DNA from: Pyrinomonadales bacterium
Lineage (GTDB): Bacteria; Acidobacteriota; Blastocatellia; Pyrinomonadales; Pyrinomonadaceae
Assembly (NCBI GenBank): GCA_038232235.1
Contig: JBBSIE010000002.1
Location: 24,572-88,571 of the forward strand
DNA: 64,000 nt
Direction: 5' to 3'
Part shown: one piece after another, positions 26,862-32,681 of the stretch
Layout: every line of letters begins with the position of its first letter
Numbering within the stretch: the stretch's first letter is position 1
The notes under the pieces: model-generated
The model's database searches: none
Told to the model about the DNA's origin: nothing
Seen by the model: the letters and a program-made list of their open reading frames with translations, nothing else
Translations under genes and position numbers: made by a program

Positions 26862-27491
26862 TTACGGTGCTTTTCGCGCAACTTCTCGAAAACTTTCGCC
26901 CGCGAAAATAGCGCGAATCGCATTAAAAATCCGTTTTAATGCGCGAATAACCTTCGGCGCGAACCAGATAAAGAAAATTCCGAACATTACTAAAACAAAC
27001 GCAATTAAAATCGGAGCAAAAACCGCTAAAAGCGTGCCGACAAATGCGATAATGTCTTCGGCAATTGATAAAACCCAATTGGAAAAAGGTTCGGGCGAAA
27101 GATTTGCGGTCGCCCGAACCGCCGCTTTAGTGCCGTGCGAAGAAAGCGCGAGTCCGCCGCCGAGCAATGTAGCAATCGTCATCACCGAAGTGTCGGTCTG
27201 ATTGGTCGCCGCGTAAGCCATCAACGCGCCAGCCGGAACGCGGATAAAAGTGTGGATCACATCCCAAACCGAATCAACGTAAGGAATTTTGTCGGCGAAA
27301 AACTCGATTGCATAAAGAAATCCGGCGATTCCGATAATCCACCAATTATCGAGAACGTCCAAACCGCCGGGCAAATGAGTCAGATTAAATTTCTGCAAAA
27401 GTCCCAAAACAGTCACGGTTGCATAAAGATTTATTCCCGAAGTCCACGCCGTGCCGAGTGCCAAACTCAATGTTGAAAACCATTCCATCAC
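26862..27491 (-). CDS. DUF4126-family membrane protein
   Basis: LALGTAWTSGINLYATVTVLG..FFADKIPYVDSVWDVIHTFIRVPAGA. Confidence 0.7.
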   Translation of the reverse strand: MMEWFSTLSLALGTAWTSGINLYATVTVLGLLQKFNLTHLPGGLDVLDNWWIIGIAGFLYAIEFFADKIPYVDSVWDVIHTFIRVPAGALMAYAATNQTDTSVMTIATLLGGGLALSSHGTKAAVRATANLSPEPFSNWVLSIAEDIIAFVGTLLAVFAPILIAFVLVMFGIFFIWFAPKVIRALKRIFNAIRAIFAGESFREVARKAP

Positions 27492-27527: not shown

Positions 27528-28874
27528 TTACGATTCTTCCTCTTCTTCAGTTCCGTCGCGTTTGATACCGAATTTTTCTAATCTGTATTGCAAAGTTCGG
27601 AAAGTCAAACCGAGCATTTTCGCTGATTTCGTGATGTTATTGTCGGTGCGTTCCATCGCCTGCATTATCAAACTGCGCTCGACATCTTCAAAATTTACGC
27701 CTTCGGGCGGCAGTTTGAAAAGTTCGTCGGCTGAAATGGGTTTTGATTCCTGTGTCATTTCCGGCGGCAAATCTTCAATCGTAATCGTGTCGTTTTCACA
27801 TAACAGCGTGGCGCGTTCGATTGCCGATTCTAGTTGGCGGACATTGCCCGGATAACTGTAATTTTCCAACAGACGCTTGGCTTCGGTGTTGATTTTTATG
27901 TCGCGTTTCGTGTCGCGTGTGTGTTTTTTGAGAAAATATTCCATCAAAACCGGAATATCCGAACGACGCTCACGAAGCGGCGGGATTTCGATGCTCAAAA
28001 CATTCAGGCGATAATATAAATCTTCGCGGAAACGTCCTTCCTGCGACATCTTTAACAAATCGCGGTTGGTCGCAGCGACGACGCGCACGTCAACATTTAA
28101 TTCCTTCGTGCCGCCGACGCGACGGATTTGTTTTTCCTGTAAAGCGCGGAGAATTTTCGCCTGCAAAGCGATGTCGAGTTCGCCGATTTCATCCAAAAAA
28201 AGCGTTCCGCGGTCGGCGACTTCAAAAAGACCTTTCTTTTCGCCGACCGCGCCGGTGAAACTCCCTTTTTCGTGTCCGAAAAGTTCGCTTTCAAGCAGAT
28301 TTTCGTTAATCGCCGCACAGTTGACGGCTTGAAAAACTTCATCTGTTCGCAGTGAATTATTGTGAATCGCCCGCGCAATCAATTCCTTTCCCGTTCCCGA
28401 TTCGCCGCGAATCAGCACCGTCGAACTGGATTTGGCGACCTTCAAAATCAGCTTTTTCACCTTGTCCATTTCCGGCGAATCGGAAATAATCTCCGCGTCG
28501 AGCGTCGTCAATTTATTCAAAGCGCGTGAAATCGTATCGAGCAGTTTTTCCGCATCGTATGGTTTTTGCAGATAATCAAACGCACCCAAACGCAAAGCGT
28601 CAACCGCCGAATCAACTGTTCCGTGCGCCGTTAAAAGCAGGACAATAATAGATTTATCAAAATCGGTTAATTCCTTCAACAAATCCAAACCGCTCATTCC
28701 CGTCATTTTAAAATCGGTCAAAACGAGATCAAAATGCCGGTCGGCGACAAATTTCATCGCCGCTTCGCCCGAACTCGCCGTCGTTACGTCATAACCTTCG
28801 CCCGACAAAATCATCTCCAAAATCTCGCGCTGAGATTTCTCGTCGTCCACTACTAATATGCTTTTCCTTGCCAT
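27528..28874 (-). CDS. Sigma-54-dependent response regulator (NtrC family)
   Basis: REC domain (ILVVDDE..DLVLTDFKMTGMSG), AAA+ (GESGTGKE, GAFTGA-like GSFTGA, ESELFGHEKG) and a C-terminal Fis-type HTH. Confidence 0.93.
   Translation of the reverse strand: MARKSILVVDDEKSQREILEMILSGEGYDVTTASSGEAAMKFVADRHFDLVLTDFKMTGMSGLDLLKELTDFDKSIIVLLLTAHGTVDSAVDALRLGAFDYLQKPYDAEKLLDTISRALNKLTTLDAEIISDSPEMDKVKKLILKVAKSSSTVLIRGESGTGKELIARAIHNNSLRTDEVFQAVNCAAINENLLESELFGHEKGSFTGAVGEKKGLFEVADRGTLFLDEIGELDIALQAKILRALQEKQIRRVGGTKELNVDVRVVAATNRDLLKMSQEGRFREDLYYRLNVLSIEIPPLRERRSDIPVLMEYFLKKHTRDTKRDIKINTEAKRLLENYSYPGNVRQLESAIERATLLCENDTITIEDLPPEMTQESKPISADELFKLPPEGVNFEDVERSLIMQAMERTDNNITKSAKMLGLTFRTLQYRLEKFGIKRDGTEEEEES
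28781..28874. repeat. Direct repeat copy A (5' end of the response-regulator gene)
   Basis: Aligns with 30985-31078 at a fixed offset of 2204 nt. The 68-nt core (28792-28859) has a single mismatch; both flanks are more divergent. Confidence 0.9.
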
Positions 28875-29055
28875 AAATTTTTCTTATAAATTTTTCTTTG
28901 CTTTTACAGTCAAATAAGAGTATAAACCAAATTATAAATAAATTCCGTGAAAATTCGTAAGTCCTCGAAAGTTTCCGCTTCTCAAGCTTGAGGCATTCAC
29001 AAAATCTTTTTATTTATCTTGAGAATCAAATCTAAACTTATTGGAGGTGAGTTAA

Positions 29056-30064
29056 ATGAGGAAAAAAAAACAACTTAGCGTTTTATACGCTTCTAATCGC
29101 AGGGCTTTTCAGCCTATTTACAATTAACATTTCGGCGCAAAACAAAGTTTTACCAAAAACTGACACTACAATTAAACCGTGTTCAGGTGAAAAGTTTGTA
29201 ATGCCCGCTTCAATAGCTCTCGGAAATGAAATCTTTTTCGATTATCTTAAAGTCGCAACTTTGACGAAAGATAAAAGAGGAGAAGTTTTTGAGAAATTTT
29301 CAAATGAACAAAAAGCCAATTTTATCAAAGTTAATTTAGCTTTACAGTTCATCAAGCATCCAGATATGACAAATGATCAAAAAGAGTTTGTTATGGATGC
29401 AATTTCAAAAGTTTCTACTGATTTATATGACAAATCTGATCCCGAAAAAGTAAGCCGTAGCGAACAAAGCGGTTTAGAGATAGAAAGTAGGGCTTTAGGG
29501 CTGTTTACGCAGAAGGATTTAGGCGATTTTGTTGAGCCTTTAATGACAAACAAAAATGAAGAGGTTGCACTCTTGCAAAAGTATGAAGATTTACTCAAGA
29601 ACGGGATGAAAGCAAGAAAGAAACTTGTTAAAGAAATGCCTGTAAATGACAGAGTAAATATCTGGAAGACTCAACTCGTCTACCATTTGATAACGGCAGA
29701 TTTATCACAGCCACAGAGAGAATTAATTCTGGGATTTCTGACGACGTTATCGCCCGACACTTTTATAAATTCTGCAAAGCAAACTAAAGAAGAATCGGCA
29801 AAAGCCACTGAAATACTTGACAAGAAAATTCGGTCGGTTTTTTCAAAGGAAGAGGAATTTGCAATTTTTGAAGCACTCGGTATTCAGAAAGTTGTAACCG
29901 ATCCTCCAAGAGAAATGAATAATCTACCATCACCATGGACATTTTGTGATTGCCGTTGGTATTGCGGCAGTACTGTAGGTACATGTGGTGGTGGTAGTTG
30001 CGATGTAGAGCCTCACGGCTGCGGTCCGTTCGGAGGATCGTATTGTACTAGCAAGTGCGGATGA
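29056..30064 (+). CDS. Secreted Cys-rich protein with fulvocin-C-like C-terminal module; start and signal peptide out of frame across an A9 tract
   Basis: GGAGGT RBS plus ATG at 29056, then A9 (29062-29070). The +1 frame encodes KKNNLAFYTLLIAGLFSLFTINISA|QNK.. and continues into ORF 29201..30064. The C-terminus is WTFCDCRWYCGSTVGTCGGGSCDVEPHGCGPFGGSYCTSKCG (8 Cys). Confidence 0.55.
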
Positions 30065-30125
30065 TAAAATCAATTTTCCTTGGTAACCGAGTAGGACATT
30101 CTAGCCTACTCGGTTACCTTTCCAT

Positions 30126-30983
30126 ATGAACTTCGGATCAGTTCTTACAGCTTATCTTACTTTACATATAGTTCTGATAATTATCGGACAGGTATCGCCG
30201 AACCGTAATTTTACTTTTATTTCTGGGATTCTTTTATTTTTTTGCTTTACAATTTATTACATTGGGCAATTCAATGAGAATGATGCGACTTGGGAAATAT
30301 TGTTCGTGCTTATTATGCTTCGCTTGCTGCTTTTAGGCGGTTATGATTTATACCAAGCAATTACTGAACTAAGTAATTTACCTGATTTAATACTCAACTT
30401 ACTCAGTATTATTTCGGGCTTTTTATATCTTCGCTTAGAAAACTCATTGAGATTACTGCCTTTTCTGATTAGCCTTATTTTCGCGTCGTTGTTTATATTT
30501 TTTAAAGGTTGGGATTATTTAGCTCATTATTATAATTTCGGCACGTTTACAGGTAAAACAAACGCTTATGGATTATCGCAAAAAGTTGAAGGAACTGACC
30601 AACAAAATACTAAAATAACTAATCAACTATTCGAGAATAAAATAGTTTTACTTGATTTTTGGATAAAAACTTGCGGATTGTGTTTCAAAAAATTTCCGCA
30701 AGTCCAAGCTGCTTACGACAAATACAAAAACGATCCATCCGTTGCAATTTATACAATTAATAAATCTGTTAAAGAAAACAAACCGAATCAAGTATTTGAA
30801 ATAATGAAAGAAGAAGGCTTTTCATTTCCCGTTGTGATTCCGACGGATGAAGAATTGCCCGAAAAGTTTGGAGTAAAAGGCTATCCGACAACTTTTGTCA
30901 TCAATCAAACCGGACAAATTGTTTATAAAGGCAACATCGAAGGCGCAGTTAAAATGGTTGACGAGTTGAAGAAAAATGATTAA
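30126..30983 (+). CDS. Polytopic membrane protein with C-terminal TlpA-like thioredoxin domain (CGLC)
   Basis: About 5 hydrophobic helices, then LLDFWIKTCGLCFKKFPQVQ..GFSFPVV..FGVKGYPTTFVINQTGQIVYKG. Confidence 0.75.
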   Translation: MNFGSVLTAYLTLHIVLIIIGQVSPNRNFTFISGILLFFCFTIYYIGQFNENDATWEILFVLIMLRLLLLGGYDLYQAITELSNLPDLILNLLSIISGFLYLRLENSLRLLPFLISLIFASLFIFFKGWDYLAHYYNFGTFTGKTNAYGLSQKVEGTDQQNTKITNQLFENKIVLLDFWIKTCGLCFKKFPQVQAAYDKYKNDPSVAIYTINKSVKENKPNQVFEIMKEEGFSFPVVIPTDEELPEKFGVKGYPTTFVINQTGQIVYKGNIEGAVKMVDELKKND

Positions 30984-31078
30984 GTTGTTATATCGTAACC
31001 TTCGCCCGACAAAATCATCTCCAAAATCTCGCGCTGAGATTTCTCATCGTCCACTACTAATATTGATTTTCGTGCCAT
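30980..31078 (-). pseudogene. 32-codon remnant of a response-regulator 5' end (direct repeat copy B)
   Basis: Translates to MARKSILVVDDEKSQREILEMILSGEGYDITT*, against MARKSILVVDDEKSQREILEMILSGEGYDVTT.. in the full gene at 28874. Confidence 0.85.
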
Positions 31079-31106
31079 ATTCTTATTTCGCCACAGAAAA
31101 AGATTA

Positions 31107-31180
31107 GCCACGAACAAACACGAACAAACACGAATAGAATTTAGTTAAATTTTCGTGAAATTTCGTGTTTGTTCGCGGCT
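31107..31180. repeat. Decamer-repeat hairpin (cgaacaaaca x2)
   Basis: gccacgaacaaacacgaa (31107-31124) pairs with ttcgtgtttgttcgcggc (31162-31179), 17 of 18. It lies immediately 3' of the kinase stop. Confidence 0.85.
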
Positions 31181-32681
31181 AAATTTCTTTTGCTTGCGGC
31201 AACTTCACCGTAAACAATGTTCCTTCATTCAAATTAGACGCGACTTCAATTGAGCCGTTGTGATCTTCGACGATTTTTTGCACAATCGCCAAACCCAAAC
31301 CCGTTCCGGTTTCTTTAGTGGAAAAATACGGCTCGAATATTTTCGACAAATGCTCCTCCGAAATTCCCACGCCTTTGTCGGCGACTTCGATTTTAACAAA
31401 ATTTTCGTCCGGCGAGATTGTCATATTGATATTTCCGCCGTTTTTTTCCATCGCCTGCATCGCGTTGGTCAGCAAATTATTAAATACCGAGCGCAAAACT
31501 GTCGCGTCGCCGAGAATTTGCGGGACGTTTTCGCGCTCAACGAGATTGATTTTTATATTCAATTCTTCGGCTTGCGGTTCGATGATGCGGCGCGAATCTT
31601 TGATGACTTCTCTGATGTCGAGCGGCTGTAAATCCAGTTTTGTCGGGCGCGAATAGCCGAGAAAATCAGTAACCTGCTGATTTATTCTGCCGACTTCGGT
31701 TTTTAATTGCGCGGTTAATTTTTCAAAGGTCGCGTGTTTTTCCGCGTCTTCAGGCGCAAATTTTCGGCGCAGATGGTCGAGCGTTAAGTTAATGTAATTT
31801 AACGGGTTGCGGATTTCGTGCGCGATTGCTGAAGCGAGTCTGCCAACGACCGCGCTTTTTTCCGTTTCCTGTAATTTAGCTTCAAGTTGGCGCGTTTTTT
31901 CCAGTTCAGCGGTCATTTCATTAAATTGATTGGTCAGTTTGCCGATTTCGTCGCTCCGTTTTGCGCCTTCGACGCGAACTCTTAAATCACCGGCGGCAAC
32001 GCGCTGCGCCGCATCGGAAAGATTGGCAATCGGGCGCGTAAAACGCCACACCAAAAAAATTGTGATAATTGTTGAAAGAAGTAATACTAAAAGTGTATAA
32101 ATAAGTGGCTTAGCAGCCTTAGCAGTAGCAGCTTTTTTGTCGGACTCAAGGATAATCATCACATACCAGCGTCCTTTTGAGGTTTGAACCGGAATTGCGT
32201 GGGCTTCGCCGTCGGCTTCGTTATTCAAGTCAGGATTCGCGTTCGGGAAATTTTTGATGTCTGCGCCGAGTTTTTTTTCGTCTTCGACAAGCGGCGGCAA
32301 ATCGGTCAATTCGCTTAACTTATGATATTTTGATGCGCCGTTTTCAGTTGTCGGCAAATAATCCGGTGAATTCAGAATGTCCCAAATTTGCCATTCGTTA
32401 TCAATAATTATGACATCTTTGATGCGCTGTGCGGTTTTTTCGTCATAAAACGGCTGTTTCCCGCCGTCCACCAAATCTTTCAAATATTCTCCCGAAGAAA
32501 CACCGCTAACGCCGAGAACCGTTCCCGCCACCAACGCCTGTTCCTGTATCGAGCGCAGTTCATTGTTTTCCCGCTGCGTTTTGAGATTAAGATAATACTG
32601 CACGCCGAGCGTCGTGACCAGGAGAAACGCTAAAATTATTAAAAGTCTGCCGCGAAATGTGTTGAAGAAATTCTCTCTCAT
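31179..32681 (-). CDS. Sensor histidine kinase (periplasmic loop, HAMP, HisKA, HATPase_c)
   Basis: Two TM segments, HAMP (RPIANLSDAAQRVAAGDLRVRV), H-box SAIAHEIRNPLN, and N/G boxes (NLLTNAMQAM, DKGVGI, GTGLGLAIV). Confidence 0.92.
   Translation of the reverse strand: MRENFFNTFRGRLLIILAFLLVTTLGVQYYLNLKTQRENNELRSIQEQALVAGTVLGVSGVSSGEYLKDLVDGGKQPFYDEKTAQRIKDVIIIDNEWQIWDILNSPDYLPTTENGASKYHKLSELTDLPPLVEDEKKLGADIKNFPNANPDLNNEADGEAHAIPVQTSKGRWYVMIILESDKKAATAKAAKPLIYTLLVLLLSTIITIFLVWRFTRPIANLSDAAQRVAAGDLRVRVEGAKRSDEIGKLTNQFNEMTAELEKTRQLEAKLQETEKSAVVGRLASAIAHEIRNPLNYINLTLDHLRRKFAPEDAEKHATFEKLTAQLKTEVGRINQQVTDFLGYSRPTKLDLQPLDIREVIKDSRRIIEPQAEELNIKINLVERENVPQILGDATVLRSVFNNLLTNAMQAMEKNGGNINMTISPDENFVKIEVADKGVGISEEHLSKIFEPYFSTKETGTGLGLAIVQKIVEDHNGSIEVASNLNEGTLFTVKLPQAKEI

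Follow-up and report, generated by a model that had tools for sequence, protein, structure and literature searches.

How does a pair of genes that carries no recombinase come to lie inside a two-component operon, and what could the two genes be doing there? The question is posed by a stretch of 64,000 nucleotides (nt) from contig JBBSIE010000002.1 of a Pyrinomonadales bacterium (hereafter the window; positions without a locus name are those of this stretch). In the window, a sensor histidine kinase gene and the gene of a sigma-54-dependent response regulator are held apart by a segment, 28876–31079, which is a small integrase-less gene cassette inserted in the kinase/sigma-54-regulator operon. 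The first gene of the cassette (gene 1) encodes a precursor related to the bacteriocin fulvocin C, and the second (gene 2) encodes a thioredoxin with five predicted transmembrane (TM) helices. In the best reading of the whole, to which we give somewhat better than an even chance on the strength of sequence comparison, the segment would be a mobile cassette for a toxin and its immunity or maturation protein, which uses the 5' end of the regulator gene as a handle and expresses its toxin in a phase-variable manner.

Both flanking genes are on the minus strand. The regulator gene (27528–28874, 448 aa), which is the target of the insertion, is full length and encodes the Pfam domains Response_reg, Sigma54_activat, AAA_lid_14 and HTH_8. 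The kinase (31179–32681, 500 aa) contains HAMP, HisKA and HATPase_c domains. A repeat search revealed that nt 1–96 of the regulator gene (codons 1–32) are present twice, once at the head of the full gene (28780–28875) and once as an orphan fragment on the minus strand (30984–31079), which is attached to the original kinase-regulator spacer (31080–31178). The two copies are 90% identical, lie 2204 nt apart and form by far the longest repeat of the region. They share an identical core of 50 nt with divergent ends, and differ in eight codons at both ends, seven of them synonymous and one conservative (V30I). The 2.1-kb insert between the repeats holds two plus-strand genes, and the cassette including the fragment is about 2.2 kb long. 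A cassette-borne, divergent intergenic region (28876–29055) separates the regulator from gene 1 (29056–30064), and a perfect 14-bp hairpin, possibly a terminator or attenuator (30082–30118, plus strand; -25.9 kcal/mol, z -8.6), was found as an inverted repeat between gene 1 and gene 2 (30126–30983, 285 aa). The G+C (GC) content of 28876–30983 is 0.35, compared with 0.47 for the regulator, 0.455 for the kinase and 0.434 for the 64-kb window. A first-pass annotation of the locus had described a kinase, a 32-codon regulator copy, a visibly AT-rich insert of two genes and then the full regulator; the domains, the 96-nt repeat and the GC values agree with it throughout.

The slot in the two-component operon

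Two related loci have the kinase followed directly by the regulator. They are L052, on a 5.3-Mb circular contig, with a kinase 81% identical to that of the window and a kinase-regulator spacer of 99 nt, and L054, with a kinase 83% identical (L numbers denote loci throughout). The window regulator is 86–91% identical to theirs at the nucleotide level. The window is collinear with both loci from a transpeptidase gene through the kinase and the spacer hairpin to about nt 86 of the orphan fragment, and collinearity resumes at the start of the full regulator. In a direct comparison, the window fragment and its upstream spacer closely resembled the empty site of L052, with few substitutions. The insertion into a two-component operon that had been proposed at first pass is supported by these two loci, and they provide the empty site which that annotation had suggested looking for in related genomes.

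The original spacer contains a long hairpin, found as inverted repeats (31085–31182, directly after the kinase stop codon; -42.2 kcal/mol, z -9.8), with a tandem CGAACAAACA decamer in its stem and a U-rich run behind it on the kinase strand. This hairpin is kept in L052, in L054 and in the occupied locus L016. Since it is kept in the empty-site loci, a terminator-like element lies between kinase and regulator even in the uninterrupted 'operon'.

Occupied slots were collected from gene 1 profile scans, which gave 15 loci in genomes and 30 in metagenomes. Regulator, intergenic region, gene 1, gene 2 and kinase follow one another in this order in L006, L007, L009–L011, L015–L019, L021, L023, L030, L038 and L050. 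The first-pass annotation had reckoned with the case that all relatives carry the same two genes at this position. They do not. About 20 relatives have widely differing cassette alleles in this slot: relative to the window, the regulators of occupied loci are 80–98% identical, gene 1 is 35–64% identical and gene 2 is 34–83% identical. As the two empty sites show, the insertion is real; it is not a one-off event, but belongs to a recurrently used, polymorphic slot.

The closest relative, L016, has a regulator 98% and a kinase 92% identical to those of the window. It is collinear with the window up to position 29150, within the signal-peptide coding region, and again from 31079, which amounts to a clean swap of 29150–31079. 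Its slot holds another gene 1 (36% identical), without gene 2 and without the regulator fragment. The window cassette itself (29035–30970) is 82% identical in nucleotide sequence to a cassette at a different locus of 'Acidobacteria bacterium 5-1', whose own slot is occupied by yet another cassette. Two loci, L009 and L017, carry two cassettes each, and in L017 the first 96 nt of the regulator and the complete intergenic region stand between the two. L011, L024 and L041 likewise have a regulator fragment behind gene 2. In the window, L011, L024 and L017, the fragments break off on their inner side at one and the same point of the regulator, about nt 96. A third regulator fragment in L017 (14042–14086 of that locus; 45 nt, 100% identical) follows the second gene 2. 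In L024 (6954–9099), glmS and a glmU-like gene stand behind the fragment that follows gene 2, in place of the kinase, which has been lost or moved. In L053, the kinase is present and the regulator is not adjacent to it.

Across four loci, the fragment and the resident regulator 5' end differ by 27 synonymous and three nonsynonymous codons, a pattern of two functional regulator alleles joined by recombination and not of a duplication decaying in place. No integrase or recombinase gene was found within or adjoining the 2.2-kb cassette; only two genes lie between the repeats, and the flanks are the regulator and the kinase. Among the marks of a site-specific element, flanking direct repeats and empty sites are present and an integrase is not. 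The arrays, the precise empty sites and the lack of a recombinase fit a cassette that carries regulator nt 1–96 as a homology handle. The 96-nt fragment would then be the recombination handle. The cassette would enter by a single homologous crossover in the regulator 5' end, which adds the cassette and leaves the old 5' end behind, and would exit by a crossover between the repeats, which restores the intact operon. Since the fragment is missing from many occupied loci, cassettes must also be replaced by ordinary double crossovers in the conserved flanks, and this route may dominate. A 2211-nt Logan unitig was considered as a circular excision product and rejected, since it ends inside the shared repeat core, as a k-mer graph yields.

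The order regulator, gene 1, gene 2 and kinase is maintained across kinases that diverge to about 58%, the cassette GC tracks host GC, and the fragment was not found in most occupied loci. These observations would also suit an ancient, vertically inherited slot in which genes 1 and 2 evolve fast, the fragment is a relic of a tandem duplication and the cassette is immobile. We regard this as quite improbable. The window and L016 are 98% identical in the regulator and 92% in the kinase, yet differ in gene 1, have gene 2 in only one of the two and show sharp breakpoints. The near-copy of the window cassette in 'Acidobacteria bacterium 5-1' lies outside the slot of that genome, and the slot holds a different cassette. 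In a quick neighbour-joining tree of the kinases, made without bootstrap, both empty loci branch from within the occupied ones. The ratio of 27 synonymous to three nonsynonymous differences between fragment and resident gene also speaks against a relic. Base composition was tried as an argument on the other side, as proof of foreign origin, and rejected: the cassette lies 8–13 GC points below its flanks in every relative, and this deficit follows host GC.

The insertion separates the regulator from the kinase and places the regulator behind the cassette-borne intergenic region. When 16 such regions were aligned, two conserved blocks were found that loosely resemble -35 and -10 elements, with weak hexamer matches. 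Block 1 reads TTGCTT (28898–28903) and TATAAA (28921–28926), and block 2 reads TTGAGG (28988–28993) and TATTTA (29011–29016). A consensus promoter scan called nothing in the intergenic region between regulator and gene 1, and the conserved blocks are not claimed as promoters. The intergenic region is not similar to the spacer that separates kinase and regulator at the empty sites. A sigma-54-dependent control of gene 1 by the neighbouring regulator was also considered and is unsupported, as there is no -24/-12 match in 28875–29056 and matches across the window are below chance.

Peptide signal genes are generally known to adjoin two-component systems, as in com, blp and agr, and gene 1 is divergent from the regulator across a shared, conserved intergenic region. 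Gene 1 might on these grounds be a secreted peptide signal, or pheromone, which is sensed by the flanking kinase, the different cassettes being pherotypes. We find this hardly credible. The periplasmic domain of the kinase follows phylogeny and not cassette type, being 89% identical between the window and L016 where gene 1 is 36% identical. The kinase was for this reason rejected as the receptor of the gene 1 peptide, its sensor domain showing no covariation with the cassette. Moreover, L052 and L054 have the two-component system without the cassette, no sigma-54 promoter lies upstream of gene 1, and the sole characterised homologue of gene 1 is a bacteriocin.

The fulvocin C-related precursor and its start-codon repeat

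With a run of adenines near its start codon read as eight (A8; see below), gene 1 encodes 335 aa. This protein matches the NCBIfam family NF033852, 'bacteriocin fulvocin C-related protein', with 86.9 bits (cutoff 35, E 2.4e-24); Pfam has no match for it. Residues 188–334 align with profile positions 2–149 of 150, and the first pro-domain accounts for a second matching stretch. The C-terminal module of eight cysteines alone reaches 16.4 bits (E 0.013), the bulk of the score coming from the pro-domain. The precursor consists of a signal peptide (about residues 1–27), a conserved Cys42, helical pro-domains at about 61–166 and 174–278, a variable linker and the 8-Cys module (C297 to G335; 29945–30061, plus strand), which is the predicted mature bacteriocin. 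The internal repeat that had been noticed in the helical region at first pass was recovered by hhalign (residues 45–170 against 171–292, probability 98.2%, E 3e-14). As these two segments are homologous, the acidobacterial protein has two copies of the fulvocin pro-domain. An AlphaFold model of the in-frame translation of 29060–30064 (predicted local distance difference test score (pLDDT) 86.9, pTM 0.83) is all-helical over residues 58–271; a linker of low confidence and a small knot come after this part. No fold match for the pro-domain was found in the PDB (best E 0.41, TM-score at most 0.2), and the structure gives no functional clue.

The 45-aa fulvocin C was verified as UniProt P01547. 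It clusters with Myxococcus proteins of 196–202 aa and is their extreme C-terminus, with the junction ...GNK|ANCSC. These Myxococcus precursors have a signal peptide, a cysteine and a helical region ahead of mature fulvocin C. A gene 1 profile built from 77 homologues aligned by hhalign with the 202-aa Myxococcus precursor P0242 over 154 columns (probability 97.4%, E 1e-11), with the module cysteines in register, including the C-x-C opening, the GCG motif and the terminal cysteine. The resemblance of the module to fulvocin C, which had been pointed out at first pass, is therefore upheld by the family profile and by a cysteine-for-cysteine alignment to the P01547 precursor. Judged from these alignments, gene 1 encodes a precursor of the fulvocin C family, predicted to be exported by Sec when read with A8, and is a true homologue of the fulvocin C precursor. 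The module, of about 40 aa, would form four disulfides, and proteolytic cleavage of the variable linker would set it free as a bacteriocin comparable to fulvocin C with its 45 aa. The protein-chemical fulvocin C sequence of 1981 (P0241) ends in GWVYCACNGNFY and the genome-encoded precursors (P0242–P0246) end in GWVYACNGDCFY; errors in the last ten residues of the published peptide are the probable reason.

At least 123 homologues of gene 1 were found, nearly all of them from metagenome-assembled genomes (MAGs) of Pyrinomonadaceae and other Acidobacteriota and from soil metagenomes. Full-length homologues begin with MNKKNNLA. The signal peptide, Cys42 and the module cysteines are conserved in the family, and the loops between the cysteines are hypervariable. 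All eight module cysteines are invariant in an alignment of 23 sequences; in one of 77 sequences six are invariant, and C315 and C330 are conserved in at least 90%. A ninth conserved cysteine is found at position 42 (29179–29181) in the acidobacterial precursors and, in Myxococcus, right after the signal peptide (Cys23 of P0243). This odd cysteine of the pro-region could join disulfide chemistry during folding.

The first-pass annotation had described gene 1 as a signal peptide, a helical region and the module. The coding sequence for all of these is present, but it is not an intact open reading frame (ORF). ATG 29056 is the sole start codon with a Shine-Dalgarno sequence (GGAGG, 29043–29047), and its frame is not that of the signal peptide and the mature protein, because codons 3–5 contain a run of nine adenines (A9; 29062–29070, plus strand), a candidate phase-variation tract; with A8 or A11, the two frames would be one. 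The stretch that codes for the signal peptide is conserved and out of frame with the ATG, and the remaining frame is open over 334 codons. The mechanical ORF begins at Met49 (29201–30064) and lacks the signal peptide, and the public protein P0001 is the same 287-aa model. This public annotation of gene 1 (287 aa from Met49) is systematically wrong, which affects about a quarter of the family entries. About a quarter of the gene 1 homologues in the database are 283–300 aa long with 85% coverage, and in at least L006 (P0075) the same upstream frameshift is the cause.

Sixteen alleles have a long A-run at codons 3–5, nine in frame and seven out of frame. Those in frame are L008, L015, L016, L018, L022, L023, L024, L027 and L035 (A8-type); those out of frame are the window, L006, L007 and L011 (A9), L010 (A7), and L014 and L021 (A10). 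No allele with an interrupted run is frameshifted at the start-codon site. The direction of the frameshift differs among alleles, which excludes a single programmed ribosomal frameshift and fits length variation of a mutable tract. In the first gene 1 copy of L017 (9963–10023), the A-run is replaced by a perfect tetranucleotide repeat, (ACAA)15.2, which is in frame and encodes MHKQTNKQTN.... In L014, a second A9 run in the middle of gene 1 (10555) coincides with a frameshift, so that one copy has two homopolymer frameshifts. The toxin would be switched on and off by changes in the length of the A-run at codons 3–5, and the window copy, with A9, would represent the OFF state of an immune non-producer.

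The plainer explanation is that there is no phase variation, that gene 1 of the window is a pseudogene or its A9 an assembly error, and that broken copies reflect decay of a dispensable, costly gene. About half of the gene 1 copies carry lesions, of several kinds beyond those in simple sequence repeats (SSRs), and the data are all from MAGs. Also, L050, a neighbour of L052 in the kinase tree, is frameshifted away from the A-run on a contig whose name suggests a long-read assembly. We nevertheless think this explanation unlikely. Frameshifts cluster at one tract of 8–10 nt, in seven of 16 long-tract alleles and in none of the short-tract ones, and the rest of the window ORF has remained open. 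Assembly error is countered by control homopolymers: A9 is the longest homopolymer of the 64-kb window, in which eight other A8 or T8 runs leave their ORFs intact, and homopolymers of at least 8 nt in the other contigs keep frame, the one exception being the second A9 in L014. Contig names (k141, NODE) point to k-mer assemblers. The 2211-nt Logan unitig, which is independent and covers 28812–31022, is 100% identical to the window, A9 included. Finally, the perfect (ACAA)15 of L017 is hard to explain except as a mutable tract.

The membrane thioredoxin and the fate of the pair

Gene 2 encodes a 5-TM domain (residues 1–125), an amphipathic helix and a thioredoxin (Trx) domain of the ResA/TlpA type (about residues 144–285), with a CGLC active site (30672–30683) and a cis-proline YPT loop. 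Residues 154–270 match the Pfam families AhpC-TSA (48.3 bits), Redoxin (48.0 bits) and Thioredoxin_8 (38.6 bits), all above cutoff. The NCBIfam cutoffs of named enzymes were not reached (ResA 59.2 of 170 bits, StoA 54.9 of 210, DsbE 31.7 of 123 and TlpA 12.9 of 230). By these profile scores, gene 2 belongs to the TlpA/ResA superfamily and is an orthologue of no named enzyme. The AlphaFold 2 (AF2) model has a pLDDT of 91.3 and contains five TM helices, the amphipathic helix and the Trx domain. Foldseek matched the Trx domain only, to ResA, StoA, DsbE and SdbA (E 3e-9, target-normalised TM-score 0.73–0.82); every match listed spans only about 135–155 columns, and the TM domain has neither a structural match in Foldseek nor a match in Pfam. 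The first-pass description of about five TM helices and a TlpA-like CGLC thioredoxin domain was thus accurate as to predicted helices, fold and CxxC motif, and the profile searches it had proposed placed gene 1 in NF033852 and gene 2 above cutoff for AhpC-TSA and Redoxin.

The motifs WxxxCGxCF and YPT (cis-Pro) are conserved in 60 gene 2 homologues. Among 13 cassettes, the TM domain is typically about 35% identical, versus about 60% for the Trx domain. TM-domain identity correlates with the module type of gene 1 (rho 0.54), a correlation confounded by the physical linkage of the two, and Trx-domain identity has a rho of 0.13. The five predicted helices would place the Trx domain opposite the N-terminus, and the loop charges do not fix the orientation. 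In the proposed arrangement, the Trx domain would face the periplasm and act on the disulfides of the module. Its likeliest role would be to protect the cell by reducing or scrambling incoming toxin, and it may also assist in folding the toxin made by the cell itself. Specificity would come from the fast-evolving TM domain.

Lesions were found in about 18 of 38 gene 1 copies. They include frameshifts in SSRs and elsewhere, nonsense mutations (L002a, L009a and L039), a change of ATG to ATT (L017b) and truncations (L018 and L027). In L002 (5924–6874), gene 1 has a single in-frame TAG in place of a conserved glutamine and the adjoining gene 2 is intact. In L009 (1747–2751), the gene 1 stop codon lies inside the C-N-C-R-W motif, again next to an intact gene 2. 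The copy with ATT in L017 (12174–12182) is the kinase-proximal one. Gene 2 itself is intact in 20 of 23 copies, including those beside dead gene 1 copies, and the regulator and kinase are always intact. A census of the mapped loci by tblastn and ORFs showed gene 2 after gene 1 in 22 cassettes (20 intact and two truncated), with three more cut by contig ends or undetermined, and about ten copies of gene 1 without gene 2. Strong hairpins lie between gene 1 and gene 2 in most cassettes, and their sequences are non-homologous.

An intact gene 2 beside a dead gene 1 is the pattern expected of a toxin gene with its protection gene, and to this extent the comparison of copies favours immunity. An alternative is that gene 2 is a maturation enzyme only, namely a periplasmic disulfide oxidase or isomerase for the four-disulfide module, like BdbB of sublancin or PedC of pediocin. 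Self-protection would then come from a pro-domain that holds the toxin inactive until extracellular cleavage, or from a factor encoded elsewhere. This alternative is to be taken seriously, though we hold it to be doubtful. The active site, CG(L/V/I/Y)C without proline, is like those of DsbC (CGYC) and protein disulfide isomerase (CGHC). The fold also matches SdbA, listed by Foldseek as a thiol-disulfide reductase; SdbA acts as a disulfide oxidase. The conserved ninth cysteine after the signal peptide, in acidobacterial and Myxococcus precursors alike, could serve folding chemistry, and dedicated thiol-disulfide oxidoreductases are well documented for disulfide-rich bacteriocins (PMC4919988, PMC8620827). 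However, gene 2 is intact beside the lesioned gene 1 copies L002a, L009a, L017b and L018 and beside all SSR-frameshifted copies, and an enzyme that served maturation alone would be expected to decay along with its substrate. It is also not obvious what a generic folding enzyme would do with a 5-TM domain this variable, and no thioredoxin lies next to gene 1 at several loci or next to the fulvocin C gene of Myxococcus. Immunity is ranked above maturation alone because gene 1 decays while gene 2 persists, with a hairpin between them.

Several observations weigh against the overall reading as a mobile, phase-variable cassette of toxin and immunity or maturation gene. Gene 2 is missing beside gene 1 in L016 and in the L012 group, and no thioredoxin partner is adjacent at the fulvocin locus of Myxococcus, so that gene 2 is not universally needed. 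Most occupied loci are without the regulator fragment, and no circular intermediate was seen. Variation in the length of the A-run was seen between lineages and not within one population, and every sequence comes from a MAG or a metagenome contig. The positive-inside rule leaves the topology of gene 2 ambiguous, the link between its TM domain and the gene 1 module is confounded as stated, and its CGxC dipeptide is as much isomerase- or oxidase-like (DsbC, CGYC) as reductase-like. The antibacterial activity of the module is deduced solely from homology to fulvocin C.

Beyond the cassette, a DUF4126 gene (26862–27491) directly follows the regulator in the window. In L050 (4596–5334) and L052 (9634–10388), a gene for an HNH endonuclease and a small ORF lie between the regulator and DUF4126; they have no counterpart in the window. 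No RNA families were found in the window with Rfam.

Significance and comparison with known systems

The protein sequence of fulvocin C was reportedly determined in 1981, and little work on it has followed; the literature searched contained passing mentions only. Here, it is shown to be the C-terminal end of a secreted precursor of about 200 aa with a folded pro-domain, and to have a large and diverse sister family in soil Acidobacteria, abundant organisms that are difficult to culture and about whose competition hardly anything is known. In the acidobacterial family, the toxin is usually paired with a membrane thioredoxin. The locus raises the questions of whether a thioredoxin can be a bacteriocin immunity protein by reduction, whether a cassette can be mobile with nothing but a short copy of its target gene, and whether repeat-based phase variation of a toxin in free-living soil bacteria leads to producer and cheater states. 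The hypervariable modules, with four predicted disulfides, would also form a library of compact, Sec-compatible antimicrobial scaffolds.

Three elements are potentially new as far as sequence analysis can tell, namely a homology handle made of the regulator 5' end, a 5-TM thioredoxin that may confer immunity by reduction, and a bacteriocin of soil bacteria that would be switched by a repeat. A more far-reaching proposal combines them all, and we put it forward only tentatively. Integrase-free handle cassettes would insert, stack, leave precisely and rewire the regulator, each with a phase-varied, Sec-exported fulvocin-type toxin and a 5-TM thioredoxin as its allele-specific reductive immunity protein. 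If this is true, each insertion replaces the upstream region of the regulator and so rewires its transcription. The 5-TM thioredoxin would likewise be a new kind of immunity protein, which disarms a cysteine-knot toxin by disulfide reduction and owes its allele specificity to the TM domain. The literature searched contained nothing specific on an acidobacterial fulvocin/thioredoxin system, on bacteriocins of Pyrinomonadaceae or on phase-variable bacteriocins.

The nearest known system is fulvocin C itself (P01547, NF033852). Both have an 8-Cys C-terminal module with a C-x-C opening and a GCG...C...C ending, and both precursors, that of gene 1 when read with A8, have a Sec signal peptide, a cysteine just behind it and a helical pro-domain with the motif WK.Q...L......Q.EFI. 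Also, the mature peptide forms the extreme C-terminus of the precursor. In contrast, the pro-domain is duplicated here (335 aa versus about 200 aa) and the loops between the cysteines are unrelated. In Myxococcus, the locus lacks a membrane thioredoxin next to the gene, two-component genes in the flanks and an SSR at the start codon. Activity is known for the M. fulvus peptide alone (Hirsch, 1977, and Tsai and Hirsch, 1981, cited in PMC8708641).

A parallel with the sublancin locus had been drawn in the first-pass annotation. As in sublancin (sunA with bdbA/bdbB), pediocin (PedC) and the glycocins, a disulfide-dependent exported peptide is encoded beside its own thioredoxin-fold enzyme (PMC4919988, PMC8620827, PMC6391423), and the parallel holds for this pairing. 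It does not extend to the remaining components. The sublancin, pediocin and glycocin loci belong to Firmicutes and have leader-peptide precursors, an ABC transporter/peptidase, often a glycosyltransferase, and a separate immunity gene (SunI). No leader-peptide precursor, glycosyltransferase, ABC transporter/peptidase or separate immunity gene was found in the cassette or its flanks, which agrees with the earlier remark that a transporter, a leader protease and a recognisable immunity gene are missing. Here, export would be by the Sec system, the large precursor has a folded pro-domain and the oxidoreductase is fused to a hypervariable 5-TM domain.

The slot as a whole resembles cdiA-CT/cdiI of contact-dependent inhibition (CDI), Rhs arrays and the pneumococcal blp locus by blpRH. 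In all of these, conserved flanks surround a hypervariable cassette of toxin and protection genes, tandem arrays contain decaying older copies, and homology segments are repeated between modules. Intact protection genes stand by dead toxin genes, and frameshifts in repeats give 'cheater' non-producers, as in blpA. The proposed handle is different, being the 5' end of an unrelated housekeeping regulator gene and not a conserved N-terminal region of the toxin. The insertion also splits a two-component operon, and the protein families are unrelated.

The start-codon tract is similar to those of the contingency loci of Haemophilus, Neisseria and Campylobacter (PMC8355987), in which a homopolymer or tetranucleotide repeat lies in the first codons of a gene for a surface or secreted protein. 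Alleles differ in repeat length and the frame changes with it, which was seen here between lineages. Unlike these loci, which belong to host-adapted pathogens, the present ones are from free-living soil Acidobacteria, and the gene that would be switched encodes a bacteriocin precursor.

The integration itself recalls that of phages and integrative and conjugative elements at the 3' ends of tRNA genes, and the Campbell-type integration of plasmids. In these, the element carries an end of the target gene so that the gene stays intact, direct repeats flank the element and empty sites exist. Unlike integration at tRNA ends, the cassette has no integrase, and a coding repeat of 96 nt with an identical core of 50 nt fits homologous recombination better than site-specific recombination.

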